64,000 nt of DNA from a virus: IMG/VR virus record IMGVR_UViG_3300018080_000174, positions 3,412 through 67,411 of that record. The stretch is one strand, 5' to 3'. Positions 5,789 to 57,773 of the stretch are shown here, piece after piece. The notes beneath the pieces were generated by a model, which ran no database searches, had not been told where the DNA came from, and saw only the letters and a list, made by a program, of their open reading frames with translations. Every line of letters begins with the position of its first letter. The first letter of the stretch is position 1. The position numbers and the translations under genes are program-made.

Positions 5789-5790
5789 GT

Positions 5791-35466: not shown

Positions 35467-35969
35467 TATGACTGTCCTACTGTATGGTCAACACTTAATG
35501 AGTTCTCGACCATCACATGAAAAATCTGCTCTGGTCGCACGCCTTTCACTTCCTTACCTGCAACCACCCATGCTGTATGTTGCTCGAACTCAGTGATGCT
35601 TTTGATGTCGTATCGACGGCCGTCATAAACCAACCAGTCGTCGTTGACGATCTCGTAAGCATCGGGTAAGTCGCGGGTATCCAAAATGAACAACCTTGTT
35701 CCAGCATCGTAAGTCCCTCCATAGACAAACGCTTTGTTAGCCGAGATTTGAGAAATCGTTTGCACAACCTCGCGCTGAATCTTAACAGGTAGGACGATAC
35801 ATCGCGGCACGCAAGTCATCGTGCGGTCATAAGTCTTCGCACCTGTTTCGTAATCAGTAGCCGTAGAGTTGAGTTTGTACACATCTACCCGGCCGCCGTA
35901 CTGCCTTTTCAAGCTGTACAGTGTTTTACGGATGAAACGGTTCATGCCTCTATTTACGCCACTAAGCAT
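35466..35969 (-). CDS. head closure / head-tail joining protein
   Basis: DWLVYDGRRYDIKSI C-terminal motif typical of stopper proteins. Confidence 0.65.
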   Translation of the reverse strand: MLSGVNRGMNRFIRKTLYSLKRQYGGRVDVYKLNSTATDYETGAKTYDRTMTCVPRCIVLPVKIQREVVQTISQISANKAFVYGGTYDAGTRLFILDTRDLPDAYEIVNDDWLVYDGRRYDIKSITEFEQHTAWVVAGKEVKGVRPEQIFHVMVENSLSVDHTVGQS

Positions 35970-36273
35970 CTCTGACTCCTTCGGGAGCGTCACTTGCCTC
36001 GATATAAGGGCACCGATTGCAAAGTCGCTCCATCACATGAGCAACCCAATTCAAGCACTCTGCATTCTGAGCCAAAGCCGTGGTCGAACGCTCTACCAAG
36101 TTGACCAAGGTATCTCGTTGGTAGTCTTCAAGTTTTTCTACTCGGGTGGAAAGCGCGTCTTCCCGTTTCCAATCGCGCCAGATGAAAAATAGTACGATGC
36201 CGACGAGCGGCCCAAAGTTGGACAATAACTCGGTAAGCATTTCCGATCCTGTCGCTGCGAAAAGTGATTCCAT
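35962..36273 (-). CDS. single-TM coiled-coil protein, BhlA/UviB holin-like
   Basis: GPLVGIVLFFIWRDWKRE followed by coiled coil. Confidence 0.55.
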   Translation of the reverse strand: MESLFAATGSEMLTELLSNFGPLVGIVLFFIWRDWKREDALSTRVEKLEDYQRDTLVNLVERSTTALAQNAECLNWVAHVMERLCNRCPYIEASDAPEGVRDA

Positions 36274-36287
36274 GCTACGCTTCCCCT

Positions 36288-36328
36288 TAAACAAAAGAAA
36301 CCGGGCGGGCGGGTTTCCACCCGCCCGG
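36288..36328 (-). terminator. Rho-independent terminator after capsid gene
   Basis: CCGGGCGGG...CCCGCCCGG followed by TTTCTTTTGTTT. Confidence 0.8.
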
Positions 36329-36340
36329 CGTGATTAAGGT

Positions 36341-37759
36341 TTAGCCGAGCATGATGCAGCCCAGGTTCTCGTCCAGCTTCGCCACTCCGCAGAGCAGGTC
36401 AGCGGTGACAACCGTACCTTGCTGACTGATGTCGTACTGCATCGACACACGCATGGTCACGTCGTTGTACGCGCCAACGGCCGAGCGGACACCCAGAGCG
36501 GTGTTCGGCAGAGCCAGCGGACGAGAAACGAGCGCGAGGGCGTTGCGATGGAATCCGAAGTTGAATGAACCAGCGGGGCCGGGGTAGGCAACCGCGTTGT
36601 CCGCCAAGCTGGCTTCCAGCGGGCGATCGAGCCACGCCAAGTGGCGGGTCGCATCGTCGGGGTCCACAGCAATCGCGATGATCGTGTAGACGTGCCGATT
36701 GACGCCAGTACCGAACGCGAGCAACTGACCCACCTGCGGCGGGGCGGTCATCACGGCGTCACCGGAGTCCAGGCCGATACCCTTCGAGTAACCAGCCGAG
36801 TACGCGCCGTCCACGTCGCACTTCTTGTATGCGTACACGATGTCCGTGTCCGCAATGGCGGCCGTCAGACCGTCCTGAAGAACGATCTGCGAGGTGTTGG
36901 TGCCGTCGTCGGTGGCCGAAGCGACTTCGTGCGGCTTTCCTTCACCCTCGAACCAGACATACTCGCCGTCCTGGACCTGATAGCCCAGAATGGTCACGGC
37001 AATCGTGGTCTCGCCCAGAGGCTCACCACCGTTGATGACGCCAGCGGCTTCATCAGTGTTGGCAATCGTGACGCTGGGGATGTTCTGGTCCATGTAGGTA
37101 TCGAAACCAAACACGCGACCCAGGCTGGCCTCACGGAGGGCCGTCCCGTCATCACCCTTCTTCTCCGCACTGATGAAGAGTTCCGTTTCCAGAAGCTCAG
37201 TCTCAGAGGCGGGGGAGAGAACCATGTTACGACCAGCGGCGTAGGCCCGGTTCTCGTTCATCTTCTCACGAGCGGCCAACAGCGTGGACTTCGCGTTGGT
37301 CGAAGAGAGTTCCAGCAACGAACCAACGTTGTTGCTGAGGAACTCGTGGACCTGACCACACAGAATGCGGTCTACCGAACTGGCGATTTCCTGCGCGGCA
37401 GGCGTCAGGTACAGTTCAACCAAGTCCTGGAAGGACTTACTGGCCTCACCGTCCTTGATCGTGAAGGTCACGTAGACGTGCTGATCCAGAGGAACCTGCA
37501 CGTTCGTCGCGACGGCGTCCTGATTGACGACGCTATCAGCGTCGGTCTTCCGCTTGGCCGTGAACGAACTGGGCCGGCGGGTATTCACAACGTCACCAAA
37601 CTGGGCGACTTCCTGGCTGAAATCCCGGTGGACGAGTCGAGCCATGACCATGTTCTCTTCGAGAATGGCCAGACCTTCTTGAGCCCACAGTTCCGGGATC
37701 AGTGCATCGTTGTCGTTGGCGTAGCACGCCATGACGGGGTGGCTATGAAGCAAATTCAT
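36341..37759 (-). CDS. major capsid protein (P22 coat-like, with beta-rich insertion)
   Basis: IPELWA..L..L, GDVVN.RRP, LGRVFGFDTYMDQN, FGFHRNALALVSRPL, D.LCGVAKL. Confidence 0.9.
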   Translation of the reverse strand: MNLLHSHPVMACYANDNDALIPELWAQEGLAILEENMVMARLVHRDFSQEVAQFGDVVNTRRPSSFTAKRKTDADSVVNQDAVATNVQVPLDQHVYVTFTIKDGEASKSFQDLVELYLTPAAQEIASSVDRILCGQVHEFLSNNVGSLLELSSTNAKSTLLAAREKMNENRAYAAGRNMVLSPASETELLETELFISAEKKGDDGTALREASLGRVFGFDTYMDQNIPSVTIANTDEAAGVINGGEPLGETTIAVTILGYQVQDGEYVWFEGEGKPHEVASATDDGTNTSQIVLQDGLTAAIADTDIVYAYKKCDVDGAYSAGYSKGIGLDSGDAVMTAPPQVGQLLAFGTGVNRHVYTIIAIAVDPDDATRHLAWLDRPLEASLADNAVAYPGPAGSFNFGFHRNALALVSRPLALPNTALGVRSAVGAYNDVTMRVSMQYDISQQGTVVTADLLCGVAKLDENLGCIMLG

Positions 37760-37778
37760 CGTACATCTCCTAAGTGAG

Positions 37779-37845
37779 TGTTTCGCCCTCTAGCAGGGCA
37801 TGACAAATGTTCTCGCTACACTACGTTGCGTAGCGGGGACAAACA
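37779..37845 (-). promoter_or_regulatory. structured RNA leader (three-way junction) upstream of capsid RBS
   Basis: TGTTT/AAACA closing stem enclosing two hairpins. Confidence 0.45.
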
Positions 37846-37857
37846 TGGCCCCTTTCT

Positions 37858-38784
37858 TTAAGCGGGACGCCGCTTTAGGCCCAAGGCTTCCGGGTTTTCC
37901 TTGCGAATCTTACGATACTGCTCCGGGGAGAGTTTCGTAGGATCAATACGGCCTTCACCCGACTTAACGCCGCCGGTTGCGGAACCCGATCCAACACCGC
38001 TAACAACGTTTGAGCGGAAGAGGTTGCCGTAATACTGGGGCAACTCCTTCATACGCTGCACGGCCTCTTCAGGGGTTCTGAGGGTTGTTACTTGGTCCCC
38101 GGTCGTTTCATCAATATCGGGGAAGTCAATCACAGGTGAGAACTGCCCAAGCGGATTGCCGCTGTCGTCAGTCTGTTCCTGCATTCTGGTCATCGGGCGC
38201 AACAGGCCCATGATTTGTGTGGGGTTAAACGCATCCTGTGCAATGGCAGCATCTTGGAGCGACCGATCAACCACCGAACTCTTATACAGGGTTTCCCACT
38301 GCTCGGCCGTTGTCTTGAGGTCTTCCACTTCCTGCGTGAAGCGTTCACGCTCTTGCTTACGCTCGTACTCAGCCTGCTGCTCCTTCGTTCGAGACATTTT
38401 CTGCAAGTCTTGAAGCTCAGCTTCCAACCGACCGCGCTCCTCTTTTTGCAGGTTCGTGTCGTTCAGCATCTTCTTGTAGCTGTCTTCAAGTTTCTTGATC
38501 TTCTCCTGATGCTTGCGACGATCTTCGGCCAAGAAGCTATTCACGTCAGCCTGTGAAAACGTCTTCTCGTTGTTCTTTCGGACTTCCTCGGCGGCCAAGC
38601 GAGCTTGCTCAGCTTTTGCGGCAGCTTCATCAGCGGCGACTTTCGCGGCGGCTTCAGCAGCGGCGACGGCATCACCAGTACCACCGGCTCCAGCGTCATC
38701 ACCACCCGCACCAGCATCATCACCTTCGTAGCAGGCCAGCGTCGGCATCGAACAGATCAAGTTGTACAGTTTGTCATACGACAT
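37858..38784 (-). CDS. capsid scaffolding protein
   Basis: KTFSQADVN, long coiled coil, LF...GSG C-terminus; directly upstream of capsid. Confidence 0.85.
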   Translation of the reverse strand: MSYDKLYNLICSMPTLACYEGDDAGAGGDDAGAGGTGDAVAAAEAAAKVAADEAAAKAEQARLAAEEVRKNNEKTFSQADVNSFLAEDRRKHQEKIKKLEDSYKKMLNDTNLQKEERGRLEAELQDLQKMSRTKEQQAEYERKQERERFTQEVEDLKTTAEQWETLYKSSVVDRSLQDAAIAQDAFNPTQIMGLLRPMTRMQEQTDDSGNPLGQFSPVIDFPDIDETTGDQVTTLRTPEEAVQRMKELPQYYGNLFRSNVVSGVGSGSATGGVKSGEGRIDPTKLSPEQYRKIRKENPEALGLKRRPA

Positions 38785-38804
38785 CGTAACTCTCCTAACG
38801 TGTG

Positions 38805-39329
38805 TTAGTCTACCCTACTAAATTTGACAGAACCGCTGTCACGCAGGAATGGGCGTAGGTATCTCCATGCTGCGGCGCTTGGAACCCCGTTATTCAGATG
38901 TTCAATCTGAGAATGGTTCCGGTTATACGTCGTTCTGACAGATGCGATTCCCTGACTGACCACAGCCAGATTTTCAAGTTCGAGATCGGGGTCTACCCCG
39001 TCTAAAAGGTTGTAAGAAATTTCCCAGCACGCGATTTTGATTTCTTCCGGTACATCGACATCTTCGTCTCGCGGGAACTGCAAATCCTGTGACCAGTCCG
39101 CGTCCCTGAGTTCTTCATCGGTGACATCCAACTCATTACCATCGGCGTCATACATTATGTCGTAGACCGCCGCCTTTTGGCCTTTGAAGTTGAGAGCGTC
39201 GATGATTTTGGTCGCCCAGATTAACGCCTTCTCCCGTTCGTCAGTCGTGGCATTAGTCCACGCCTCTTCATGGAGTCTGTGCGAGAAGTAGGTGTTAGCC
39301 TCAGCAAGTGTTCCGTAGTATGTGTACAT
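38805..39329 (-). CDS. head-tail adaptor (DnaT-like/gp6-like)
   Basis: YGTLAEANTYF, KALIWAT, QDLQFPR, VPEEIKIAC, YLRPF. Confidence 0.8.
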   Translation of the reverse strand: MYTYYGTLAEANTYFSHRLHEEAWTNATTDEREKALIWATKIIDALNFKGQKAAVYDIMYDADGNELDVTDEELRDADWSQDLQFPRDEDVDVPEEIKIACWEISYNLLDGVDPDLELENLAVVSQGIASVRTTYNRNHSQIEHLNNGVPSAAAWRYLRPFLRDSGSVKFSRVD

Positions 39330-39331
39330 GC

Positions 39332-39661
39332 TTAAACTCCAATCCAAGCTAAATCTTGATCGGCCGACGTGCTGATGAAGTATAGGTCGTCAGCACTTTC
39401 AACATTGATGACGATTGAGGCTCCTGGCCCAAGTGGAAATCCACCGGTTGTGGGATCACTGTCCGCTGTGACATTCGAGCCGCCTACCCAAATTGTCGCG
39501 GTATTCGGAACTGGGTCCGTGCCACCAGGGGCTCGAATAATGAGGCCCGTCGTCAAATTACCCTTGACCTCAGTGATTTGGACACGGGTAAGCCCGACCA
39601 CTAAGTGGCCATTATACACTCGATCCGGAACGGTTGTTTTCGATACTTTGACTGGCAACAT
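39332..39661 (-). CDS. small virion protein (beta-sandwich-like)
   Basis: NTATIWVGG..V...GFPLGPG pattern; head cluster. Confidence 0.55.
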   Translation of the reverse strand: MLPVKVSKTTVPDRVYNGHLVVGLTRVQITEVKGNLTTGLIIRAPGGTDPVPNTATIWVGGSNVTADSDPTTGGFPLGPGASIVINVESADDLYFISTSADQDLAWIGV

Positions 39662-39679: not shown

Positions 39680-41491
39680 TTATTCCGCCTTCTTAGCACG
39701 ACCTTCGCCGCGAACCGGCTTCGCTGCCGAATCATTGAGCGTCGTGTCCGTGGCCGCTTTACGTTCTTCACTCCCCTCCCTCGCAGGTTCGTCCGACAAA
39801 TCTTCCACACCTCTTGCGGCCGGATTCTCCGCATCAGATACCGATGTCTGTGCTTCAAGAATACGGGTTGCTCGCTCCAAATGATCTTCACGGGCCTGTA
39901 GATACTCATCCTCATTGAAGCCCAAGGCCATCGAAGCAACTTGCTCGCCGCACAGACCAGCCTCTTGGGATCGGATGATGACATCTGGATCACTTGTGGT
40001 GTAATCAGCCTCATCAATTTCATCGAAGATCGAGTCAATCTTCTCTGTATTGATTCGTCCCGACAGTAGAGCCGTTACGATGTTCTTGGCCAATTCCTTT
40101 TTCACCGTGTTGCCGGGAACGGTGAACATCATCTCACGCAGTTTCGTCGCCTCATCAATGCGGTCCCTGTCCGTTTTCAAACTGTAGCGATCTGGATATT
40201 TGATCGTAGCGATCTTACGATGTTCAAGTCGTCGTTCCTCATACGCAGCCCAGTGCTCTGCTACTTTTCGCTCGCTGCTCTCAAGAACCAGTCCGATATA
40301 CGACAGACCCGCTTCCAGCCCTTGATCGCTCATTTTCAGAGCTTCGGCGGACGTGGCTCGCTTACCGATCTTGTTTGTCACCGCAAGATTAACGAGCTTC
40401 CTGATGTCGTCCTCCAGCTTCTCTTGGAGCTTCAATGAGGCTTCCAGCGGCTCAGGGGACGGATGGATAAAGCCCGGTCGTTCCGCTTTCAGATCATACG
40501 TTCGACCGTGGGTAGTACCTGTCAAAATCTCACGCCCAGAGGCTCGCTGACCGCCAGCCATCGCCGTCCCATCGGGATTAGCTGCGTGCTTCAAATGGTC
40601 GCCCACCGCTCGTCGGTCCACCTGCTCAGTGTAGAACGGGAAGTTTGCTTTCAGGGCGTAGGCAACATCGCTGGAAGTCAGGTTCAGCAAAGCCGCCTGA
40701 TGATTCGATACGTCTTTCAAGAGACTGTCACCAATGTCCAGCAAGACGAAGGGGATACGAGTCAATGCGAGCACGATGGGCTCACCCAACCAGGGATCAC
40801 CATCTGGCGTGATCGGATTTGAGTCAGCGTCATAAAACTGCACATTCACGAAACCTGTTTCTTTGTCGATCCAAATCAGACGGTAGCGTTCAAACTCACC
40901 GCCCGGCAGCTTCAGATCGTACATGTCGTGTTGCGTGAAGTCAACGCCCTTGTCCCGGAGAAGAACCGCTTGGAACTCACCCGGCTCCTCTGGCTTCGAG
41001 AGCGACCACGCCAAAATGTCTTCAACTTGATACATGTAGAGATACGGGCGGGCCGTCCCAACGTCGGCCAGCGTTGGCCCTTCCAACTCGGGCATATCTA
41101 CATAAACTCCTACCTTACCCATGACTAGCAACTCGGTAAGGCAGTCAATACCCAGGAAGCCATTCATGGAACTTCCTCGCAAGTCCACGCCACCCTTCTC
41201 TCCCGCAACTGCCGACATGTAAGCAGTTGAACCATCGCGTCGGGTAATATCTCGCATCCTTTGGAAGATGGAATTTCGCACGTCGTTTACAGCAGCCTTG
41301 GCATACGTCGGGATCGGCGTAATGGCCTTGCGATCATTAAAGTCCGATGTCGATTCCCGCTCAGTAAATTTTGTCAAATACTGATCGGTGTAATGCTCCC
41401 CGCCGTCGTACACTTCACGCCACTTTGCCCAATAAGGCGTGTCGTGAAAGTATCGCGGATGCCGTGTATCAATTACCGAAAATTTAGCCAT
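39680..41491 (-). CDS. portal protein
   Basis: 603 aa directly after TerL; HP.Y...W..WR..Y.GG N-terminus of DUF4055-like portals. Confidence 0.85.
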   Translation of the reverse strand: MAKFSVIDTRHPRYFHDTPYWAKWREVYDGGEHYTDQYLTKFTERESTSDFNDRKAITPIPTYAKAAVNDVRNSIFQRMRDITRRDGSTAYMSAVAGEKGGVDLRGSSMNGFLGIDCLTELLVMGKVGVYVDMPELEGPTLADVGTARPYLYMYQVEDILAWSLSKPEEPGEFQAVLLRDKGVDFTQHDMYDLKLPGGEFERYRLIWIDKETGFVNVQFYDADSNPITPDGDPWLGEPIVLALTRIPFVLLDIGDSLLKDVSNHQAALLNLTSSDVAYALKANFPFYTEQVDRRAVGDHLKHAANPDGTAMAGGQRASGREILTGTTHGRTYDLKAERPGFIHPSPEPLEASLKLQEKLEDDIRKLVNLAVTNKIGKRATSAEALKMSDQGLEAGLSYIGLVLESSERKVAEHWAAYEERRLEHRKIATIKYPDRYSLKTDRDRIDEATKLREMMFTVPGNTVKKELAKNIVTALLSGRINTEKIDSIFDEIDEADYTTSDPDVIIRSQEAGLCGEQVASMALGFNEDEYLQAREDHLERATRILEAQTSVSDAENPAARGVEDLSDEPAREGSEERKAATDTTLNDSAAKPVRGEGRAKKAE

Positions 41492-41503: not shown

Positions 41504-43171
41504 TCACAAGAAAACTCCGATGTCCTTGTTGGTTACAATCCCGGCTGCAAGTGGTAGACCCATTTCAGCGTAGGTCAAGGCATGTACGAAGTGGTCAGTG
41601 CCAGTGTTTATGTAAACGGCCCTTGGGTTATTCAATTCGTCCTTCTCGAAAGTTCGGACTACGTTTTTCATGTGGTCTTTGAATTCAAAGCTAGTGTCAG
41701 CCGGGATTTGAATTCGTCCGCTATGAAATCGACCTAAGGCAGCATCCATCCAGTTCGTGCGGTCAACGGTGGCAATTGGTGCGCCGCCATCTTCTTCGCT
41801 AATTTGCATTTCCTTACCCGTGACTCCCCGCCGATAGCGGCAGAGGTAAACGTACCCAGGAAACCGACGTGCGAATCGTCGGGCGTCGTTGATCTGCGGA
41901 TCGGCGTCTATGACGCAGGCTAGGACTTGCCACTCTCGCATCAATTTATCAAGATGCTCAAAGTCGTCTCCAGGAACCTTCCCCTCCCACAACAGCTTTC
42001 CAAAGGCTGCGGCATTCAAGTCGTGGCTATACTGGTCAAAGAAATACTCCATCACGACAATGTTGTTGGCTTTACCTTGGTCAATCCCCATGCAAATGCA
42101 ACGCTCACCGCCAACTTGTGGCCGGGCATCATTTTTTGTGTATCCGGCAACCGCATGTTCGAGTTCCGTGTCTGTTACCAAGCCACCTGCCGGGATGTAA
42201 GGTTGACCTAGTTTGGAGTTGTGGAACTCCACCATCGCCGCTTCGTCACCCAGGCCACGAAAATGCGCCGTGACGATTTCCCCTGGCGACACTGTAAAGC
42301 TGTACAATTGGTTGATAAGGAAACTGCGAAAATCCTCATCGCACTTTACTGTGGACTCCCAATGACAATTCTCCAGATTCAACCACTCAGCTTTTGTCGC
42401 ATGGTCCAACTTGTGCCCACACTCTTTGCATTTCAGGTAGGACTCTTTGCACCTTGGGTCTGCCACGGTTTCCCCGATGATCTCGACGCAATCCGGCCAA
42501 ACCAATTCAGTCATACGCCCGCAGTGTGGGCACTTGAATATGTAGTGCTCTTGCGACCCCTGTTCGTACAGTTTATGTACGCCGAATTTAGGGATTGTCG
42601 GGGTCGAAATGGCCCACACGGATTTCTCGATATGACCCGACAACCGTTCGAGAGCGAGCCAGATTTGCTTCTGGTCCATCTCGTTCACTTCATCAAGGAT
42701 CAACGTCGAAACTGGGATTGATTTCAGGTTGGCGTCTCCTCGCGATCCTCTGATATAGAGATTAACGCCACCAGCCTGCTTCAACCCAACAGTGTTCGTG
42801 TCTGTGAAAAGGCTCTCCAAGTAGGGGCTATTCAGTAACGCGGTATTGAACCGAGCCTTTGCGAAGTCGCTGGCATTGTTCAACGTGGGGAGGACATACA
42901 GCACATCCTTTCGCAATACGTCCACAACATAAAATGCTTGGTTGATGGCGACTTCCGTGACGCCCATTTGGGCAGCTTTCATTGCAACATTGTAAGCCGC
43001 CTGTGAATCTTGGATGTCTTTGCACCACGGGTACATTTTGTATCCATACGGGCCTGCAAATTCCCCGCCCATAATGCGCCGATTCATGGCCCATCGAGAT
43101 GCTGAGGTCATTGTTCGGCTTTTCATGCCGCTTGCAAGGGCCTCACAAAATGCGTCCTGCAAAGCACCCAT
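41504..43171 (-). CDS. terL: terminase large subunit (GpA-like)
   Basis: KAAQMGVTE, LILDE, ISTPT, CPHC/CKEC Zn knuckle, MGIDQG nuclease, DHFVHA. Confidence 0.92.
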   Translation of the reverse strand: MGALQDAFCEALASGMKSRTMTSASRWAMNRRIMGGEFAGPYGYKMYPWCKDIQDSQAAYNVAMKAAQMGVTEVAINQAFYVVDVLRKDVLYVLPTLNNASDFAKARFNTALLNSPYLESLFTDTNTVGLKQAGGVNLYIRGSRGDANLKSIPVSTLILDEVNEMDQKQIWLALERLSGHIEKSVWAISTPTIPKFGVHKLYEQGSQEHYIFKCPHCGRMTELVWPDCVEIIGETVADPRCKESYLKCKECGHKLDHATKAEWLNLENCHWESTVKCDEDFRSFLINQLYSFTVSPGEIVTAHFRGLGDEAAMVEFHNSKLGQPYIPAGGLVTDTELEHAVAGYTKNDARPQVGGERCICMGIDQGKANNIVVMEYFFDQYSHDLNAAAFGKLLWEGKVPGDDFEHLDKLMREWQVLACVIDADPQINDARRFARRFPGYVYLCRYRRGVTGKEMQISEEDGGAPIATVDRTNWMDAALGRFHSGRIQIPADTSFEFKDHMKNVVRTFEKDELNNPRAVYINTGTDHFVHALTYAEMGLPLAAGIVTNKDIGVFL

Positions 43172-43175
43172 TTAC

Positions 43176-43586
43176 TTACTCGTCTTTGGAGTCTTTGTCC
43201 ACAGCCACTTCCGCCTTCATCTTCAGCTTGCTCCCCGGCTCGGGCTTCGGCTCGGGCTTCGGCTCGGGCTTCGCCTTGGGCTTCGCCTTGGGCTTCGGCT
43301 CGGGCTTCGGCTCGGGCTTCGGCTCGGGCTTCGGCGCGGGCTTCATGGCGGCCTTCAAGGCTTCCTCGCTATACTCCATCCACTCGCCGTCGATCAGTAG
43401 TTGCTTCACCATCACTTCTCGGCTGGCACTGAGAATTTTCACGGTGAGAGCGGCCACATCTTCGTCGGCCATTGGAATTTCAATCTCCGGAGCCGCAGCA
43501 CCTCGGACGTTTAGCTGACTTCCGTCCTTCAGATGGACATGAATCAGGTAGCTGGGAAAATGTCGTGCAGGGTTACGAAATTTCAT
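43176..43586 (-). CDS. hypothetical protein with PKPE/PKAK repeats
   Basis: ORF; low-complexity C-terminus. Confidence 0.65.
   Translation of the reverse strand: MKFRNPARHFPSYLIHVHLKDGSQLNVRGAAAPEIEIPMADEDVAALTVKILSASREVMVKQLLIDGEWMEYSEEALKAAMKPAPKPEPKPEPKPEPKPKAKPKAKPEPKPEPKPEPGSKLKMKAEVAVDKDSKDE
43237..43344. repeat. 12-bp tandem repeat (GGCTCGGGCTTC and variants)
   Basis: About 9 units, in frame, encoding PKPE. Confidence 0.9.
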
Positions 43587-43587
43587 C

Positions 43588-43893
43588 TTACTCTCCTTCT
43601 GGTTTCCGCTCGGACGGGTTAGGCTCCAGGATCAACAACGGGAGCAGTTTCATCAGAATGGCCTGAATTTGCGGCCAGTGCTTTACGAACCAGTCCCAAA
43701 TCGCACTCCAGTCGATCCGGCCGGTCTTAACTTTCCAAGGCGCGCCGAGTTGACGTTCAACTTCAGCTTCCCACTTCGCGACCGTCTCCGGGTCTTTGCA
43801 GGCTTCTTTGACCTTGGTGTACTCTTCTCGGGTGATTAGGCCGCGCCGCTTCTGACGCCGGGCCACTCTCTGTGCTTTTCGTGCGAAGTTCAT
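43588..43893 (-). CDS. basic hypothetical protein with amphipathic C-terminus
   Basis: IDWSAIWDWFVKHWPQI. Confidence 0.65.
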   Translation of the reverse strand: MNFARKAQRVARRQKRRGLITREEYTKVKEACKDPETVAKWEAEVERQLGAPWKVKTGRIDWSAIWDWFVKHWPQIQAILMKLLPLLILEPNPSERKPEGE

Positions 43894-44201
43894 TCTTCAC
43901 TCCTGTCTAAGGCATCTAGTGCCAAAAAGAAATGTGTTATCCCCAGGGATGCGAGGCTGGCAAGAGTCACCATCGCCAAGCCCGTAATAATCATCTCTCC
44001 CAGCGTGCCTCTGAACCACGCTATTACGCTGACCGCTGCCAACCAGTGACTCAAACAATAGGGGCAGTGAATCAACTCCTCAAACCATACTCCGAGTCTT
44101 GTGACCAAGTTCCGCAGCCAATACATCGCGTTCGACTTGGAAATCGTCATGGACGCGGCTGCGACCGCCAAGGATGTCAGAATGATGTTATCAAGTGACA
44201 T
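43890..44201 (-). CDS. DUF1360-like membrane protein
   Basis: ELIHCPYCLSHW flanked by TM helices. Confidence 0.75.
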   Translation of the reverse strand: MSLDNIILTSLAVAAASMTISKSNAMYWLRNLVTRLGVWFEELIHCPYCLSHWLAAVSVIAWFRGTLGEMIITGLAMVTLASLASLGITHFFLALDALDRSEE

Positions 44202-44769
44202 AGCGGCTCTCGGAGGGGTTGGAATTCTTCTTCAAGTCCTTCTTGATCGTCTCGGCGCTGGTCACGCCGACATGTCTCGCTACAACTGCACCGTCGCGGA
44301 AGATCAAAGTCGTCGGTAATCTATCAATGCCCAACTCCTTTGCAACTTCTCGATTTTCATCGTAGTCCATGATGTAGACGTTGTATCCCTCAGCTTTGAG
44401 CTTCTTTACAATGGGGTACATTTTCTTACAAGCAGGGCACCAATCTGCCGCCCATAGGACTAAGCAGTTGGACTTAGTTATCACCGCTTCTCCGACCTCC
44501 GTCTCCGCAGTCTCGGTATTCGCGTGGGCTTCTCCTGTGGGGAGGTATTCAGGTCGCCAGCCGAACTGTCGTTCAGCTTCGGGTGTCCTTTGTGGTCCAG
44601 GTAGTCGTTGGCTATATCCGTTGCCTCGGTAATTTTCTCGCTCCAAAGAATCTTGGACCCCTTGGATATCGCGAGGCCGGTCGAACGAACTAGACGTACT
44701 ACCCGTCGCCATATAGAGAGCAAAGCAAACATAGCACACTCCCAGGATTTGTAGTAACTGTTGTTTCAT
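44191..44769 (-). CDS. membrane-anchored/secreted thioredoxin
   Basis: WAADWCPACK, GIDRLPT; N-terminal hydrophobic segment. Confidence 0.88.
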   Translation of the reverse strand: MKQQLLQILGVCYVCFALYMATGSTSSSFDRPRDIQGVQDSLERENYRGNGYSQRLPGPQRTPEAERQFGWRPEYLPTGEAHANTETAETEVGEAVITKSNCLVLWAADWCPACKKMYPIVKKLKAEGYNVYIMDYDENREVAKELGIDRLPTTLIFRDGAVVARHVGVTSAETIKKDLKKNSNPSESRYVT

Positions 44770-44773
44770 CGCA

Positions 44774-45805
44774 TCACCAGATAATGTAATCGGGGATGTC
44801 TACGCGAGGGTATCCAACGTACCCACTGATCGCAAGACTATCTCCCTGTTTCATCGCGGCGTCAATTGTTGCCGCATCACACCAGAAACTCCCATCCGGT
44901 TGTTCATGCCGCTTTGGCCCGCTGACCCAAACATCGCCGCCCCAACTGTTTTGGACCAATGCCCCTGGCCGTCTGTATTCATCATCAACGCCGAGGATTA
45001 CCATCGCATGGTACCACGGTCGTCGCCCACGTCGCAGGAATCCATCCCGATCTCGCTTGGTATTGAAGCCCACGTTGCTGCACATGATAACGGGATAACC
45101 GTTAGCCACTGCATCGCGGCACTCTTCCCACGACCGCACGAATGCACAAGTTCGCACCGGATGGAGTCGGCACAGCGGCTCCAACGCATCGGGCACACCC
45201 ATGTTGCCGCGACCGAGTTTCCGAGCCTTCAAACCATCGTAGGTCGTGTAGTCAAACTTACCGTCAAGGTACTTCTGTCGGAGGAGCACGCCCCACTTAC
45301 GGATAAACTCAGCCGCCCAAACACCGAGAGAGCCGTCGCCGCTGACTCGGCCGCCACCGACCTCGACTCGCGAACCGGCGTAGATGATCTCCGTGGCGGA
45401 TTTAGTTACCCATCGTTCGGACTTGTTGTGCATCAAGATACGGACGGCGGTAAGGACATCCACCCCCAAACCGTAAGCGTGGCTAACGCAATCTCCAATG
45501 GTCTGGTAATGGGGAACCAGAGGTCGTCCCGTGACTTGCTCAAAGAGCTTGTACAGGAGGACTTTCTTACCTTTGCCCGTACCCTTGATCTTCTGTGACT
45601 GCTGACTTAGGAAGGGGTAGCGATGCGCCTTGACAAATTGCCGCCGGGCTTCCGTATCGTTGACCCAGCCTGCGTAAAGCGGATTCTCAGTATCCGCATG
45701 AAGGTCCAGAGGTGCTCCCGCCGCATAGGCCAGTTCTGGGAATCCGCCTGCCATCAGGCCACCAGCCGTGCCTGCCAATAGCTTCAAAGCGTCACGTCGA
45801 TTCAT
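44774..45805 (-). CDS. Tat-signal papain-like (C1) cysteine peptidase
   Basis: MNRRDALKLL twin-Arg signal with AYA cleavage site; QTIGDCVSH, WYHAM, QNSWG. Confidence 0.85.
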   Translation of the reverse strand: MNRRDALKLLAGTAGGLMAGGFPELAYAAGAPLDLHADTENPLYAGWVNDTEARRQFVKAHRYPFLSQQSQKIKGTGKGKKVLLYKLFEQVTGRPLVPHYQTIGDCVSHAYGLGVDVLTAVRILMHNKSERWVTKSATEIIYAGSRVEVGGGRVSGDGSLGVWAAEFIRKWGVLLRQKYLDGKFDYTTYDGLKARKLGRGNMGVPDALEPLCRLHPVRTCAFVRSWEECRDAVANGYPVIMCSNVGFNTKRDRDGFLRRGRRPWYHAMVILGVDDEYRRPGALVQNSWGGDVWVSGPKRHEQPDGSFWCDAATIDAAMKQGDSLAISGYVGYPRVDIPDYIIW

Positions 45806-46886: not shown

Positions 46887-48032
46887 CTAAGTTCCATTGA
46901 AGTGTCGTGATAGGCATCTGTCTTCAGGGATGTCATCAACGCCCATTCCAATTTTCAAGATGTAGTCGGCATCGTGTGGCACGCAGTAAATTGCTCCATT
47001 CGGGGCCAACACACCTCCCCACCATTTGTTTCCGCCTGATCCCAAGCCTGCGCCGAAACGAATGGCGGTGTCGTTACTGGGGTCAATCCTCAAAATGTCG
47101 TCGCTATCGTAGGGTATGCCGTAGATGCACCCATCGGCCCCGAGTACGCCACCATGCCATTTACCCGTTCCTGAAAGACTTCCAAAGGTAGTAATGGTGT
47201 CATCGCGTGGATCAATCTTCAGCACTGACGTAGCGGAGTTGGGGATGGCGTAGATGCAACCGTTTCCAGCCATAACGGCTCCGTGGTATTTTGAACCGCC
47301 ACTTATGTTTCCAAATGTCGATGTGGAGTCATCACTTGGGTCAATCTTCAAAACGGTAAGATCATTGAAGGGAATTCCGTAAATATATCCGTTTGACGCA
47401 CAGACGGCTGAAAACCATTTATCGCCGTCTGATGCGTAGGTTGAACCAACCTTCCCGTGGCTGTCATCACTTGGGTCGATTTTAAGAACCTGCGTCTCTC
47501 GGAAAGGTACTGCATACACTTTTCCGTTACAACCCAAAACTGATGGACCCCACTTGTATCTACCGGCGTAGGTTCCAAAAGTGTTCTCGGTATCCGTGTC
47601 TGTGTCGAACTTCCAGATGGCCGTCGCCCCATTATACGGTGCGGCATAAATACAGTTGTTAGTGGCAAGAGCACCTCCAACCCATTTAGCCTCGGCCGAA
47701 TACGTCGTATTAACGCTGCTGGAGGAATCATTGCTGGGGTCAACTTTAGTGAGCCATTCCGGATCAAACGGAGTGCCGTAAATCTTCCCGTTTGGGGCCA
47801 AGACACACCCGGCCGACTGGTCATTCGCCGTGTGAGTTCCAAACGTCTTCGACGGCCCGGCCCCCATCTGACCACGCCCGAAACCAGCACGGGCTGCGAT
47901 AGCTCGCCTAATTTGCGTCTCGGCGGCGGCGTTAGTTTCCCACGCCGGGAAATCACCCTTGTATACCAAGTCGTCATCAGCGATAGCTTCAAGCTCGCCG
48001 CTATTGACTGTTAATGGTTTTCTATAGCTCAT
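46887..48032 (-). CDS. beta-propeller virion protein, paralog 1
   Basis: About 7 repeats KWxGGVLAxNGxIYxxP...LKIDP. Confidence 0.75.
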   Translation of the reverse strand: MSYRKPLTVNSGELEAIADDDLVYKGDFPAWETNAAAETQIRRAIAARAGFGRGQMGAGPSKTFGTHTANDQSAGCVLAPNGKIYGTPFDPEWLTKVDPSNDSSSSVNTTYSAEAKWVGGALATNNCIYAAPYNGATAIWKFDTDTDTENTFGTYAGRYKWGPSVLGCNGKVYAVPFRETQVLKIDPSDDSHGKVGSTYASDGDKWFSAVCASNGYIYGIPFNDLTVLKIDPSDDSTSTFGNISGGSKYHGAVMAGNGCIYAIPNSATSVLKIDPRDDTITTFGSLSGTGKWHGGVLGADGCIYGIPYDSDDILRIDPSNDTAIRFGAGLGSGGNKWWGGVLAPNGAIYCVPHDADYILKIGMGVDDIPEDRCLSRHFNGT

Positions 48033-48038
48033 GGTGAC

Positions 48039-49169
48039 TCACAGCTTGTTAAAGAAACGTGACAGGCAACTATCAAGTTGCACGTCTTCGAGGGGTTGTC
48101 CGATTTTCAAAAGGTGGTCGCTATCATGTGGGCACCCGTAAATGCAGCCATTAGATGCGGCCGCGCCTCCGATCCATTTGTCCCCGTCCCCAAAATTTCC
48201 AAAGGTGGATATGTCATCTGTCTTCGGGTCAATCACTAGGACGGGAGATGCGTCGAATGGAATACCATAAATGAGCCCATCTGCGCCGAGAACACCGCCG
48301 CACCATTTTTCAGTGAGGCCAATGTTTCCGAGCAACTCGGTGGTATCATCACGGGTGTCAATCTTCAAAACGGCAGTGCTGTTATATGGCATACAATAAA
48401 TGCAATCGTTGGGGGCAAGCACGCCGCCCCACCACTTTGCCGTCGAGGTAGTGAGACTGCCGAATGTGGAGGTTGAGTCATCACTGGGATCAATTTTCAG
48501 GACAGTTTCGCTGGTCCCCGGAACTCCGTAAATGAACCCATTAGGGGCCAGTACGCCACCTTGCCATTTAGCCGTGCCTATAAAATTGCCGAACGTCGAA
48601 GGCGTGTCGGTACTTGTGTCAATTTTCAGGATCGAAGTGCTGGTCCACGGCATTCCGTAGATGTTACCTGTCGCCGCCATGACGCCGCCGAGCCATTTGG
48701 TCGAGCCCGAAAGGCTACCGAACGTGGTCGTGGAATCATCACTGGGGTCCAACCTTAAAATCGTCGTCGAATCCAGAGGGATGCCGTAAATGATACCGTT
48801 TGACCCGAGGACACCGCCGCTCCACTTAACTGATCCGGCTAATGTGCCAAAGGTCGAAGTAGAATGATCGGAGGGGTCTACCTTTAGGATGTTCGTTTCA
48901 GTGTGCGGGATTCCGTATAGGTAGCCGTTAGGAGCTACGACGAAACCATTCCACTTATCCGTGTTCGTGGACAGGGTGCCCAGTTCGTCTGCACGTCGCG
49001 TCCATTGAGCACGGCCCGCGTCGGCACGGATGCTATGAGCGTTCCTAGTCTGGGTCCACTGAAGGCTGTTCGTCTCCCATGCGGGAAAATCACCCCAATC
49101 CACAATGTCTCCACTTTGGAGCATTTGCAAACCGCCATCGGCAATCGTGAGGGGTGTTACAACTGTCAT
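48039..49169 (-). CDS. beta-propeller virion protein, paralog 2
   Basis: Same repeats; shared FPAWETN and LSRxFN termini. Confidence 0.75.
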   Translation of the reverse strand: MTVVTPLTIADGGLQMLQSGDIVDWGDFPAWETNSLQWTQTRNAHSIRADAGRAQWTRRADELGTLSTNTDKWNGFVVAPNGYLYGIPHTETNILKVDPSDHSTSTFGTLAGSVKWSGGVLGSNGIIYGIPLDSTTILRLDPSDDSTTTFGSLSGSTKWLGGVMAATGNIYGMPWTSTSILKIDTSTDTPSTFGNFIGTAKWQGGVLAPNGFIYGVPGTSETVLKIDPSDDSTSTFGSLTTSTAKWWGGVLAPNDCIYCMPYNSTAVLKIDTRDDTTELLGNIGLTEKWCGGVLGADGLIYGIPFDASPVLVIDPKTDDISTFGNFGDGDKWIGGAAASNGCIYGCPHDSDHLLKIGQPLEDVQLDSCLSRFFNKL

Positions 49170-49173
49170 GGTG

Positions 49174-49383
49174 CTACCGGTTCATAAGTTTGCACGTTTG
49201 AGGCCGTAGCTGCACGTCGAATTGATCCCGCCACGGTTTGAAATCCGGTTTATTTAGGTCGTCCAAAACTACACAAGGACCAATCCCCTCAAGATCACAA
49301 ATGATGAGGAGAGTGTTGGTCTGCATCTCATTGAATGCCTCAACCATTGCTTGTTCTTCGGCAGTTATCTGATATACCTGCAT
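49174..49383 (-). CDS. small hypothetical protein
   Basis: GAGG RBS, ATG 49383, between propeller genes. Confidence 0.5.
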   Translation of the reverse strand: MQVYQITAEEQAMVEAFNEMQTNTLLIICDLEGIGPCVVLDDLNKPDFKPWRDQFDVQLRPQTCKLMNR

Positions 49384-49393
49384 GGCCCGCCTC

Positions 49394-50527
49394 TTATAGT
49401 GATTTGTTGAAATGACGAGATAGCACGTAGTCTTCCTGCACATCGTCAATTGCCTGACCAACCTTCATAAAGGTTGTCACGCCGAGCGGGATGGCGTACA
49501 CGCAGCCGTTATGTCCGAGGATGGAGCCCATTGCCTTACCGCCCGTCGTGCCTACGTCGCCAAATTCAGTATACTCGTCCGTCTGAGGGTTGATCTCCAA
49601 GATCGTGTCTTCATTGCGGGGCATACAGTAGATTCGTCCGTTAGGTGCGAGAACGGCTCCGGCGTATTTAGCCGAACCGCTGAAAGTGCCGAACTCACTT
49701 ACGGTATCATTCACGGTGTCGATCTTGACAATCGTGGTACCGCCATACGGCGGGGAGTAAATACAACCGTTGGGTGCGAGCACGCCGCCGACGTGGGTGC
49801 CGCCCGTGATGGTACCAAACGTGGAGGTCGAATCGTCACTTGGATCAATCTTGAGGATATTCGTATTGATGTAGGGCACGCAATAAATGCTGCCATCCAC
49901 CCCCAGACATGCGCCGCCATACTTACCGCCGCCGCCCGCAATGGTGCCGAATGTGGAGGTTGAGTCATCACTGGGATCGAGCTTGAATACGTTGGCCGCG
50001 CTATACGGGGTGAAGTAAATGTAGCCATTGTATGCCTGAACACCACCCATGTAAGCATTTGTTCCGCCCGCCGTTCCAAACGTCGAGGCTGTGTCGGTGC
50101 TGGGCACGATCTTCAAAACTGAGGTGCTGTTATGCGGAGCCCCGTAAATGTTTCCGGTATAGGCTAGTACACCGCCAGCCCATTTCCCAGCCGTTGCTCC
50201 CAAACTTCCAAATGTGCTCGTTGTGTCGTCACTGGGGTCAAGTTTCAGGACGGTTGCACTTGTGTATGGAATGCCGTAGACATATCCGTTCGAGGCCGCA
50301 ACCGCACCATACCATTTCGCGTCCCCAACTAAGTTGCCAAGTTGCTGAACTCGCCGGGTCCATTGAGTTCGGTGGTGGGAAGCCCACCCTGCGAACGCTT
50401 CCCGAACCTGCGTCCACGCCTCAGTATTCGTCTCCCAATCAGGGAACACTCCCGGACTGAGAAAGTCACCGGGCGCGAGAGCTTCTCGCTTACCACTCGC
50501 CAATACTAAGGGTTTTCTAAGGCTCAT
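49394..50527 (-). CDS. beta-propeller virion protein, paralog 3
   Basis: Same repeats; MSLRKPLVL...FPDWETN. Confidence 0.75.
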   Translation of the reverse strand: MSLRKPLVLASGKREALAPGDFLSPGVFPDWETNTEAWTQVREAFAGWASHHRTQWTRRVQQLGNLVGDAKWYGAVAASNGYVYGIPYTSATVLKLDPSDDTTSTFGSLGATAGKWAGGVLAYTGNIYGAPHNSTSVLKIVPSTDTASTFGTAGGTNAYMGGVQAYNGYIYFTPYSAANVFKLDPSDDSTSTFGTIAGGGGKYGGACLGVDGSIYCVPYINTNILKIDPSDDSTSTFGTITGGTHVGGVLAPNGCIYSPPYGGTTIVKIDTVNDTVSEFGTFSGSAKYAGAVLAPNGRIYCMPRNEDTILEINPQTDEYTEFGDVGTTGGKAMGSILGHNGCVYAIPLGVTTFMKVGQAIDDVQEDYVLSRHFNKSL

Positions 50528-51186
50528 AGCAGGATCGGAGCTTCAATTCGGATGTTCATTACCGTGGTACTCATGGCCTGTCCCACACGCACGACATATT
50601 GACCGGCTGTGGAAGGTGCTGTGCTAGTGAACTTACCTGCCGTGCTTGGATCGAGATAGTACATAGCTCCGGCCGTCAGTCCGCCAGTGCCGCCAGTGAC
50701 GGCGTCCCATTGTCCAGTTGTGGCTTCGAGGAACCCGTCCGCTTGCACATCACCCGCCGTCGCCGTATTGATAGTCGTATCGGCCACCAGCCCTAGCAAT
50801 TCAGTCGTTGCCGCAGCATTCGCTTGGGCCTTGTCCATGTTGCCGTTCGACTTGACATAGACGGCGTTGCCGATTACCAACGAACCGGCATTGTCATTCG
50901 TTAGTTCAATCACACTGCCGCCACCACCGCCACCGCCAGCCGCCCACTCAAGCCCCGTACCAGCCGCATTGACGGTGAGGACATCAGCAGGATTCCCATA
51001 GGCGTGAATGACCGATAAGTCAGTCACGTAGGGCTGGAGCGTTGCTTCCATGCCGCGAATCTCGGCCCGCATCCGGTTTCCCATCTCGATGTCGGGACTC
51101 TTCTCAATGCTAGTTTCCTCTGTCGTGGATGTAGTACCATCCCAGATAGAGGTCGGGAATTTAGGATCGGGCGTTGCTTGTGGCAT
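50524..51186 (-). CDS. virion decoration/fibre adaptor (DUF2190/cement-like C-domain)
   Basis: GNAVYV, GLTAGAMYYL, G..T.TAP...G...VG.A; poly-Gly hinge. Confidence 0.65.
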   Translation of the reverse strand: MPQATPDPKFPTSIWDGTTSTTEETSIEKSPDIEMGNRMRAEIRGMEATLQPYVTDLSVIHAYGNPADVLTVNAAGTGLEWAAGGGGGGGSVIELTNDNAGSLVIGNAVYVKSNGNMDKAQANAAATTELLGLVADTTINTATAGDVQADGFLEATTGQWDAVTGGTGGLTAGAMYYLDPSTAGKFTSTAPSTAGQYVVRVGQAMSTTVMNIRIEAPILL

Positions 51187-51196
51187 CGTTCACCCC

Positions 51197-51730
51197 TTAA
51201 ATATCGGTGTCTGTGAGAGCGTCGTGTAGCTCCTCAATTTGCTTTTGAAGTGCTTCGACTCTCGCCTTGGTTTCCTTGGAATGAGATGCCAACTGGTTTC
51301 GCACTTGGTTGCGGATAACCTCAAACTGTTGGGCAACCTCTTCTTCGAGCTTCTTGTACAGGTCTTCCACGGTGCGGGTGCGGAGCAACAATCGCTTGAC
51401 GCCGCGCTTAACCTTGCTGTGGCTTTCCAGTAGTGTGTCCAATCGTTCGCGGATTCCACGAACGGCTCCCTCAAGTTGCCACGGCGGCGAGACTCGCTCC
51501 AGCGTGGCCTGCATCTTCTCAACCTTGGCCGTTGCGTCTTTGATCTCCTCATTGATATTGGGCATTTTATCAATGTTGTCGGCCAGATTCAAAACGTACC
51601 TTTGGATAGCCTCCAGTTCATGGAGCATGAGACGCCAATCATTGTGCGTCGGTGGTTTGACGACGGCAAGGTCGGGGCGAGCATCTGTGATGCCGTTCCA
51701 AATACCGTTTGGAAATAGTGATGCGCTCAT
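51197..51730 (-). CDS. coiled-coil protein sharing N-terminal module with 50524..51186
   Basis: FPNGIWNG vs FPTSIWDG; long heptad repeat. Confidence 0.6.
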   Translation of the reverse strand: MSASLFPNGIWNGITDARPDLAVVKPPTHNDWRLMLHELEAIQRYVLNLADNIDKMPNINEEIKDATAKVEKMQATLERVSPPWQLEGAVRGIRERLDTLLESHSKVKRGVKRLLLRTRTVEDLYKKLEEEVAQQFEVIRNQVRNQLASHSKETKARVEALQKQIEELHDALTDTDI

Positions 51731-57233: not shown

Positions 57234-57773
57234 TTACTTACCTTCGTCTGGGTCATAAGCGGCAATTTTGGCGACCATCCGTTCGCTGATCCGGTCAACG
57301 ATTGTCTCGTATCCGTCAAGTCCCTCCAACTCATCCATGACGATCTCAACAATGACCTTGGCGAGATCAAGGAGCGATGCCTTGGAGAGCAGATTCCCCA
57401 GGCTGGTTTCCAGTCGGTGGCAACTCGACACGAGCTTTTCGAGCGTGACGAAAAGGGAGTTGACTTGCCCGACTGCGGAAATCACGTCGGCGTTGCTTTC
57501 CACCATATTCAAACGCCGCTCAACCAGTGAGCGGCAAAGTGCGATTTCCTCGCGGAGCGATTTGAGTTCCTCTACTTGACTATGACGCCCAGCAGATTCC
57601 GCGATGTCGATATTCGTGAGTTGGTAGGCTTTCAAGGACTGCTTGTTCTCGAAATCCCGATCCCGCAAGTGGTACGGGCAAAACTCCTGCCCTTCGGCCG
57701 CTTGATAGGCGCACTGACCCTTCTGGGTGAGGGCTTGGCATCGTCGGGGGTCGTTGGCGTCGATAGAACTCAT
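57234..57773 (-). CDS. putative terminase small subunit (N-terminal C3H Zn finger, helical core)
   Basis: RC..LT.KGQC...FCPYH; SLREEIALCR; first gene of the late operon. Confidence 0.55.
   Translation of the reverse strand: MSSIDANDPRRCQALTQKGQCAYQAAEGQEFCPYHLRDRDFENKQSLKAYQLTNIDIAESAGRHSQVEELKSLREEIALCRSLVERRLNMVESNADVISAVGQVNSLFVTLEKLVSSCHRLETSLGNLLSKASLLDLAKVIVEIVMDELEGLDGYETIVDRISERMVAKIAAYDPDEGK

Follow-up and report, generated by a model that had tools for sequence, protein, structure and literature searches.

Why should two non-homologous head proteins of one virus begin with nearly the same short peptide, and what would read it? The question is raised by a stretch of 64,000 nucleotides, here called the window, which covers positions 3,412 to 67,411 of the IMG/VR virus record IMGVR_UViG_3300018080_000174, a record of 67.4 kb with an estimated completeness of 62%. 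In the window, the major capsid protein and the scaffolding protein encoded directly upstream of it each start with a hydrophobic leader that ends in Ala-Cys-Tyr and is followed at a sharp junction by acidic residues. An initial annotation of this DNA had taken the shared motif, P-x-(L/M)-A-C-Y, for a common maturation cleavage site, analogous to that of the staphylococcal phage 80alpha and cut by some host or phage protease. Judging from the sequences of many relatives, the two leaders track each other across a whole family and appear to be selected as a pair at the protein level, and we read them, with moderate confidence, as a phage-specific docking and assembly tag that would be read by one phage-encoded partner. 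The features that carry this argument are the following.

36341 to 37759, minus strand: major capsid protein of 472 amino acids, P22-like coat fold with an insertion domain (PF11651, phrog_283)
37721 to 37759, minus strand: capsid leader of 13 amino acids, MNLLHSHPVMACY, with the junction between Tyr13 and Ala14
37652 to 37720, minus strand: mature-type N-terminus and N-arm helix of the coat protein (ANDNDALIPELWAQEGLAILEENM...), strongly conserved in 30 aligned homologues, helix 22-36 in the AlphaFold2 (AF2) model
37767 to 37771, minus strand: Shine-Dalgarno sequence AGGAG of the capsid gene, 7 nucleotides before the ATG
37858 to 38784, minus strand: scaffolding protein of 308 amino acids, directly upstream of the capsid gene, assigned with the help of its model and C-terminal motif
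38728 to 38784, minus strand: scaffold leader of 19 amino acids, MSYDKLYNLICSMPTLACY, with the junction between Tyr19 and Glu20; a matching leader occurs in the scaffold homologues of 64 loci
38674 to 38727, minus strand: scaffold linker, residues 20-37, acidic and Gly/Ala-rich, predicted to be disordered (AF2 confidence score, pLDDT, below 50)
37882 to 37926, minus strand: C-terminal helix-turn-helix of the scaffold, residues 287-301 (AF2 helices 287-296 and 298-301), with a conserved basic motif
38792 to 38796, minus strand: Shine-Dalgarno sequence AGGAG of the scaffold gene, 7 nucleotides before the ATG

Translation of the window bears out the peptides as first described: the capsid open reading frame (ORF) starts with its 13-residue leader followed by ANDND, the scaffold ORF with its 19-residue leader followed by EGDD, and both leaders end in ACY. 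Since an AGGAG stands 7 nucleotides before both start codons, in the common context TTAGGAGAnnTACGATG, the leaders are translated; no such ribosome-binding site precedes the internal Met13 of the scaffold. Taken alone, the match in the window is barely above chance and not statistically compelling, as the two N-termini rank first of the 3321 pairs formed by 82 window ORFs with a score of 29 vs 28 for the runner-up. This narrow lead and the shared context of the two genes are what could be said for a likeness that has no function at the protein level and stems from chance, from recent DNA copying or from a shared nucleotide translation signal. No other window ORF carries the leader motif at a credible start, and throughout the window, 97 loci and two complete genomes the leader is restricted to capsid and scaffold. 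The runner-up pair consists of the adjoining genes 50524-51186 and 51197-51730 (minus strand), whose common FPxxIWxG motif is possibly another shared N-terminal module.

The weight of the evidence lies in the relatives. A search of 5.8 billion proteins gave 1861 relatives of the capsid, and among the best 120, which were examined, 106 have a complete N-terminus. In these the residue before the junction (P1) is Tyr or Phe in 102 cases, or in 104 if an insertion or deletion of one residue is allowed, while Cys precedes it (P2) in 87 and Ala follows the junction (P1') in 81; the leader is 7 to 20 residues long. The remaining 14 proteins begin inside the N-arm, ten of them at MARLVHRDF, probably because a second exon was called as a separate gene. 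In three loci (L005:1878-3100, L022:3956-5148 and L058:2926-4100) the capsid gene is split right after ...LAILEENMV, a site that corresponds to about position 37645 of the window, by an insertion of about 1.1 kb; the insertion holds an endonuclease VII/HNH-like ORF of about 285 amino acids, which suggests a group-I-intron-like element.

In 80 related IMG/VR loci the capsid gene is immediately preceded by the gene of a scaffold homologue, and wherever both N-termini are readable (64/64 loci) the scaffold has a matching hydrophobic leader, typically with Cys-Tyr/Phe at its end, and then an acidic, Gly-rich run. Deduplication of the 64 loci leaves 47 distinct capsid/scaffold pairs, the shortest leader among them being the six residues MNLLCY. 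P1 is Tyr or Phe in 44 of the 47 scaffolds and in as many capsids, and P2 is Cys in 36 scaffolds and 41 capsids. The likeness is much greater within a phage than between phages: the BLOSUM sum over P8-P1 is 1056 vs 507 +/- 44 for shuffled pairs, and that over P8-P3, from which the conserved Cys-Tyr/Phe is excluded, is 488 vs 50 +/- 40, with 0 of 5000 shuffles reaching the observed value in either case, by a control that takes no account of ancestry shared among the phages. Matched pairs include LYSNPVLACY in both proteins of L004, YLLQASV in both of L032, TCF in both of L054 and SY in both of L068 and of L076, and an unusual ending is matched as well, namely LVCR and LVLR in L048.

Where the two leaders have an identical residue, they use the identical codon in 82 of 198 cases vs 81.8 predicted by codon usage. 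Selection on the protein, and not DNA copying between the leaders, which we reject, therefore preserves the likeness; this result, with the conservation and co-variation in the 47 pairs and in 21 further pairs described below, makes a likeness without protein-level function scarcely credible. The conservation of ACY in homologues had been named beforehand as the point on which the claim of a shared motif hung, and the motif is conserved, so the claim stands. The longer form P-x-(L/M)-A-C-Y is not a fixed recognition motif, as other clades have other endings. A bacterial lipoprotein signal (lipobox), which calls for a basic n-region, a core of at least 7 hydrophobic residues and, at +1, a Cys that does not vary, was also considered and rejected: the leaders lack the basic n-region, their hydrophobic stretch is not long enough, a leader may consist of six residues only, and related clades have Ser, Met, Leu or Val in place of the Cys.

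Those other clades come from a profile search of 1.84 billion cluster representatives, which found 4131 relatives at E<=0.001 and 625 at E<=1e-30, counted as clusters at 50% identity. The best 150 representatives included 127 that could be parsed; 111 of these have a leader of at least six residues and 15 have their start at the junction itself (M-ANxxx). P1, located by a crude fixed offset, is Tyr or Phe in 64 of the 111 leader-bearing representatives, and P2 is mostly Val (27), also Tyr, Phe or Ile, with Cys in 10. Further loci were retrieved for the relatives of four leaderless representatives, and there the leaders lacking Cys are again twins within a phage: PFRLVY (L181), GKIW.PVF (L177), TLYT.Q.PLF (L158), WIPVF (L168), VHVF (L156), LLAY (L228), PEITVY (L246) and RSWYG (L238). 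Atypical endings are paired too (RSWYG with RSWYG, WVG with FYG), and KKFxLLY was found in both proteins by eye. The endings of these clades, among them PFRLVY, GKIWTPVF, PEITVY, RSWYG and LVxR, thus differ widely, yet the two copies in a phage always match. Automatic parsing gave 26 pairs, of which L232 (unclear junction), L233 (near-duplicate) and L165, L167 and L193 (Cys clade, already counted) were dropped; for the 21 Cys-less pairs that remain, the sum over P8-P3 is 294 vs 24.5 +/- 34.7 in shuffled pairs, which none of 5000 shuffles reached. In a third set of 15 loci, 12 (10 distinct) have twin leaders by eye, in two the scaffold is cut by the contig end, and one is leaderless.

The leader is also lost, or lacking, on both proteins together. 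The capsids of L153 and L250 begin at the junction, and their scaffolds start with a hydrophilic acidic stretch without a hydrophobic leader. None of the loci read was discordant in having a leader on one protein and not on the other. The coat proteins of all four cultured distant relatives (Vibrio phages MAR10 and FGH, Clostridium phage phiCP39-O and Streptomyces phage Shaeky) begin at the junction, and the scaffolds of these four phages have no leader.

The frequent Cys at P2 brings to mind a cleavage of coat and scaffold by themselves, through an N-to-S or N-to-O acyl shift at a Cys or Ser beside the junction. Such a mechanism would need no protease gene, which fits the absence of one, and P2 is Cys or Ser in 44/47 capsids and 41/47 scaffolds. 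The wider family speaks against it, since P2 there is mostly Val, Tyr, Phe or Ile and Cys in only 10/111, and the Cys clade itself has some members with Met, Ala, Leu or Phe at this position. A catalytic site in the capsid that is tied to the leader was rejected as well, because no alignment column is conserved only in leader-bearing as opposed to leaderless members, and the leader and the scaffold linker are predicted to be disordered, which offers no structured active site. We regard self-cleavage as very improbable.

The capsid protein matches PF11651 (3.5e-35, 122 bits with a cut-off of 24) and phrog_283 (1.3e-61), the best PDB matches of its AF2 model in Foldseek are the coat proteins of Sf6, P22 and CUS-3 (E 8.6e-11 to 2.5e-9), and it is a P22-type coat protein. 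A search for solved structures found none of a close capsid relative, only the distant capsids 8zdh, 9jwb and 8e16. The 308-residue ORF is assigned as the scaffold because of its position, a weak match to PF06810 (E 3.4e-4, 21 bits, under the 35-bit cut-off), a confident helical model (helices 39-182 and 287-301, a small beta domain and the C-terminal helix-turn-helix) and the basic C-terminal motif ..YRKxRKENPEALGL.. that is conserved in its homologues. By analogy with the scaffolds of P22 and 80alpha, the helix-turn-helix is presumed to be the coat-binding end.

The alignment of phrog_283 begins at capsid residue 14, so that the window capsid has 13 extra residues ahead of the start of phrog_283 and of the four cultured relatives, and the alignments mark the junction as a discrete module boundary. 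A small residue follows the Met in 14 of the 15 leaderless representatives, compared with 59% small residues at P1' in leader-bearing forms (chance about 0.004); it would expose the junction residue as a free N-terminus, which is a weak hint that a free end matters. Both leaders are predicted to be flexible and exposed: residues 1-16 of the capsid have a pLDDT below 50, and the scaffold has low confidence over residues 1-15 and then a pLDDT below 50 over residues 16-37. The linker that follows the scaffold leader differs in length and composition among homologues.

A protease that would remove the leaders was looked for in the phage. The genes to be considered are the rest of the head module and one putative peptidase beyond it.

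41504 to 43171, minus strand: large terminase (PF05876 and PF20454; phrog_675, 5.6e-92)
39680 to 41491, minus strand: portal protein (phrog_145, 3.4e-31)
39332 to 39661, minus strand: ORF of 109 amino acids at the usual position of a prohead protease, without a Pfam or PHROG match, present in 9/66 loci
38805 to 39347, minus strand: head-tail adaptor (Ad1-like) of 180 amino acids (phrog_477, 5.9e-18; PF20557), not a protease
44774 to 45805, minus strand: papain-like protein with a twin-arginine signal; Q..DC, H and NSWG as well as RRDALK are conserved in 5/5 aligned proteins

The absence of a prohead protease between portal and scaffold, as first reported, is confirmed: the position usual for such a gene, between portal and capsid, holds only the non-conserved 109-residue ORF, which has no family, and the Ad1-like adaptor, which is kept in 65 of the 66 loci with sufficient flank. 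The small ORF is ruled out as a prohead protease, as only 9 of the 66 loci have it. A Pfam scan of 60 window ORFs gave no peptidase family, and Prp, S78 (PF04586) and ClpP (PF00574) were found in none of five related virus records (three at least 96% complete), S77/S49 not having been searched for separately. The scaffold as a hidden protease was rejected, its helical model having no PDB match at E<=0.001; its conserved VVSGxGSG stretch lies in a disordered loop. No prohead protease is thus recognisable from the phage sequences, and a novel one could still exist.

Where might a novel one be sought? The window shares with two complete relatives and four prophages the genes for terminase, portal, adaptor, scaffold, capsid and tail, for a small membrane protein downstream of the capsid gene and for an uncharacterised protein of 179 amino acids; none of this common set has a family assignment that suggests a protease. 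The small membrane protein (110 amino acids, 35962-36294, minus strand), directly downstream of the capsid gene, has one predicted membrane helix and a Cys-rich tail, has no family assignment and is shared by 67 of 82 related loci and by each of the four prophages examined. The 179-residue protein (57234-57773, minus strand) has no Pfam or PHROG match and occurs in every relative and prophage examined; in the relatives it lies a few kb upstream of the terminase, in the window some 14 kb of accessory genes lie between, and it may be the small terminase.

The papain-like protein is the obvious candidate by its residues, Q..DC, H and NSWG, which we take to be the papain/C1 pattern. It has neither a Pfam match nor a PDB match by sequence, and the ESM Atlas gives a weak lead to Peptidase_C1 (score 0.87, the family being on 20% of the members of one cluster). 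Seven of 10 related virus records have it, and the three that do not are only 60-84% complete. Its twin-arginine export signal is conserved in 5/5 proteins and its neighbours are membrane and exported proteins; it is absent from four prophage regions of about 58 kb each and from three of the five host genomes with leader-bearing prophages (G003-G005), while G001 and G002 have only partial matches, on another contig or far from the prophage. The initial annotation had put this C1 peptidase forward as an enzyme to try on the leader peptides, and we judge it unlikely in that role in view of the export signal and of its absence from the prophages and from 3/5 hosts. Two of the virus records that have it (G012:C1:5784-7796 and G015:C1:2432-4394) carry in this protein an in-frame insertion of about 325 amino acids between profile positions 282 and 271-334, which is possibly an intein. 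Genes in the interval from the papain-like gene to the terminase (43176-44769, minus strand) encode a thioredoxin with a membrane anchor (PF00085, 44191-44769), a membrane protein of the DUF1360 family (43890-44201) and a (KPEP)n-repeat protein (43176-43586), and as a group they look like a cassette of exported, envelope-directed proteins.

A protease of the phage that has escaped recognition, be it the papain-like protein or one of the conserved uncharacterised proteins, would remove both leaders and co-evolve with them, which would account for leaders that are specific to a lineage; the papain-like protein keeps its Cys, His and Asn-Ser-Trp-Gly in a gene found in most related records, and several universal head-region proteins have no family assignment. 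Set against this are the export signal and exported neighbours of the papain-like protein and its absence from the prophage regions and G003-G005, the rarity of the 109-residue ORF, the lack of a protease-like fold in the scaffold model, and the absence of Prp, S78 and ClpP from the five virus records. On balance such an enzyme is unlikely.

Could a protease of the host be the reader instead? Here phage 80alpha is the precedent. Its capsid (CP) and scaffold (SP) leaders are cut by the host protease Prp (PMC5744158, PMC9405229), which removes 13 and 14 residues from capsid and scaffold between Phe and Ala, the phage being without a protease of its own (PMC5744158). As in 80alpha, two non-homologous head proteins here share an N-terminal leader, of about 13-19 residues, P1 is aromatic, P1' of the capsid is Ala, and a prohead protease gene is lacking from the phage. 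One may therefore suppose that the leader is a cleavage site for a host protease other than Prp, that it copies the leader of a host protein, and that a cut after Tyr/Phe frees the mature coat (ANDND...) and the scaffold (EGDD...). Several findings favour this: the layout is that of 80alpha (PMC5744158), P1 is aromatic in 44/47 pairs and P1' is Ala in 81/106 capsids, the start of leaderless homologues coincides with the junction, their Met being removable in 14/15, and no phage protease family was found.

The likely hosts tell another story. When 185,579 species genomes were scanned, 17 loci of the capsid family came up, 11 of them in metagenome-assembled genomes titled Planctomycetota, Pirellulales, Thermoguttaceae, Aureliella or Planctomycetaceae, in several cases within contigs of 0.4-6.6 Mb, and six in bins with other labels, mostly on short contigs. 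The prophage copies in these host genomes also have twin leaders, and the host of the window phage is likely to belong to the Planctomycetota, to judge from prophage relatives at 47-56% capsid identity. Prp (PF04327) was found in none of the five prophage-bearing host genomes, none of 201 genomes sampled from the phylum and none of the five virus records, by a search that was positive in the controls B. subtilis, T. maritima and L. lactis. L27 starts with MAHKKGQGSS, without extension, in 5/5 of these host genomes. As likely hosts, in a phylum that is itself deduced, have no Prp and a short L27, the 80alpha/Prp mechanism does not apply, and the analogy drawn in the initial annotation fails to this extent.

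Host proteins with the same leader, for which a search had been proposed, did not turn up either. A leader profile (15 columns, 80 rows) gave eight matches at E<=10 in the five host genomes; five are the prophages' own capsid or scaffold, the only convincing ones, and three, which are weak, internal or within short frames, do not lie where a protein could plausibly start, in a search so insensitive (8-19 candidates per genome past the first filter) that a host substrate could be missed. The wide variation of clade endings, with Gly and Arg at P1, is hard to fit to one specificity, and there are two leader types in one host genome: the three prophages of G001 have ALVVCY/PAIACY or EFICY/EFVCY, matched within each phage. 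These copies lie on a Thermoguttaceae-labelled chromosome at C1:1478011, 2199422 and 2691992 (loci L138-L140). Five other host genomes have a single copy each, so that there is no further multi-prophage host among them. Cleavage by a host protease remains for us a somewhat doubtful explanation, though a serious one.

What then reads the leaders? We favour a phage-specific tag. The leader is a short hydrophobic peptide ending in Cys-Tyr, which in the coat protein is joined directly to the acidic start of the N-arm and in the scaffold, through a disordered acidic linker, to a coiled coil. A single partner would recognise both copies as the procapsid assembles, and candidates for it are a pocket of the coat or of the scaffold protein and a mutual pairing of the leaders; removal afterwards at the Tyr-Ala bond of the coat and the Tyr-Glu bond of the scaffold is plausible, given how sharp the junction is, that P1 is aromatic and that natural variants without a leader exist. 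We infer that the partner is encoded by the phage and that the tag acts in assembly, because the leader differs between lineages yet is alike within a phage, because both copies are absent together and because the likely hosts lack a Prp/L27 system of the 80alpha type. That unusual endings (Arg, Gly) are matched and that one host harbours two leader types point to a partner that evolves with the phage, and clade endings that vary but always match within a phage fit a phage-specific partner better than one conserved protease.

A more specific version, which we put forward only tentatively, is that the leader docks in one pocket of coat or scaffold, or that the two copies pair in register, and that their matched fast evolution reflects assembly specificity. 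If so, a scaffold would work only with its own coat protein, and co-resident phages or prophages, such as the three in G001, would not cross-assemble; no host protease would be involved, and a new principle of capsid assembly specificity would be at work in a very large uncultured P22-like family. A complex prediction of the mature capsid (residues 14-472) with scaffold residues 1-45 scored 0.00, without controls, and speaks neither for nor against binding.

Several points weigh against a docking tag with a phage-encoded partner. No binding partner of the leaders was identified. The co-variation, measured as it was against shuffles blind to common descent, would by itself fit a host partner too if lineages copied a variable host leader, in the manner of the L27 mimicry of Firmicutes phages, and the comparison within a host rests on one genome (G001). 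The sharp junction and the nearly always aromatic P1 point towards cleavage rather than docking alone, as does the small residue after the Met in 14/15 leaderless forms, by which the junction residue would be exposed.

Known systems offer parallels to each part of this arrangement. In 80alpha, assembly requires the scaffold leader even in an uncleavable form (PMC5744158), and such a need for the leader without cleavage fits the function of a tag here. Unlike the leaders of 80alpha, those of the present family do not resemble the L27 motif MLxx(D/N)LQ(F/L)F'A(S/H)KK; the likely hosts are Planctomycetota with a short L27 and no Prp, and the capsid has a P22-like fold. The leader is moreover specific to the lineage and not fixed by a conserved host substrate, and its removal is only plausible here. 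The layout is the same as in 80alpha, the motif and likely host phylum differ, there is no link to Prp/L27, and the logic is probably different.

The closest structural relatives do without a leader. P22, Sf6 and CUS-3 have the same coat fold (PF11651), a separate helical scaffold with a basic C-terminal helix-turn-helix and no protease gene, and P22-type coat and scaffold proteins are not known to be N-terminally processed. Set beside these phages, and beside MAR10, FGH, phiCP39-O and Shaeky, whose coats start at the junction, the twin leader is an added module.

Targeting peptides on head proteins exist elsewhere. Phage T4 encodes its own prohead protease, which removes the targeting peptide, whereas no prohead protease gene was found here. 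This T4 capsid targeting sequence is a short N-terminal peptide on unrelated proteins that directs them into the assembling prohead (PMC3012670). The present leader resembles it in being short, conserved and N-terminal on otherwise unrelated proteins, and differs in that the T4 peptide sits on internal cargo proteins and not on the coat protein. With encapsulins the likeness lies in the docking. Their cargo targeting peptide, usually C-terminal and on the cargo only, docks on the inner face of the HK97-fold shell protein, a possible model for the scaffold leader; the encapsulin shell protein has no copy of the cargo peptide, unlike the coat protein here, which carries the leader too.

Full-text searches, also on Planctomycetes phages, found no description of such leaders outside 80alpha/Prp. 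A leader shared by scaffold and coat has so far been described only in the 80alpha group and explained there by the Firmicutes-specific Prp/L27 system, and the same layout recurs in the very large environmental capsid family of 625 clusters. The leader may be read by a pocket of the coat protein, by the scaffold, by a new protease or by a chaperone, and identifying the reader would show how P22-type capsids without a protease control their assembly. The leader is also a simple sequence marker by which scaffold genes in metagenomes can be assigned to their capsid genes, and it may serve as a peptide handle to load cargo into capsid-derived particles.

Two further groups of genes lie outside the head module of the window. 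At 46887-50527 (minus strand) there are three tandem genes of about 377-381 amino acids each with DUF6923 repeats. The genes at 1730-7292 (minus strand), which encode an RNA ligase (PF09414 with a PHA02142 OB domain), an RlaP nucleotidyltransferase (PF10127), a protein with a weak metallophosphatase match and a GT41-like glycosyltransferase, look like an RNA-repair set.

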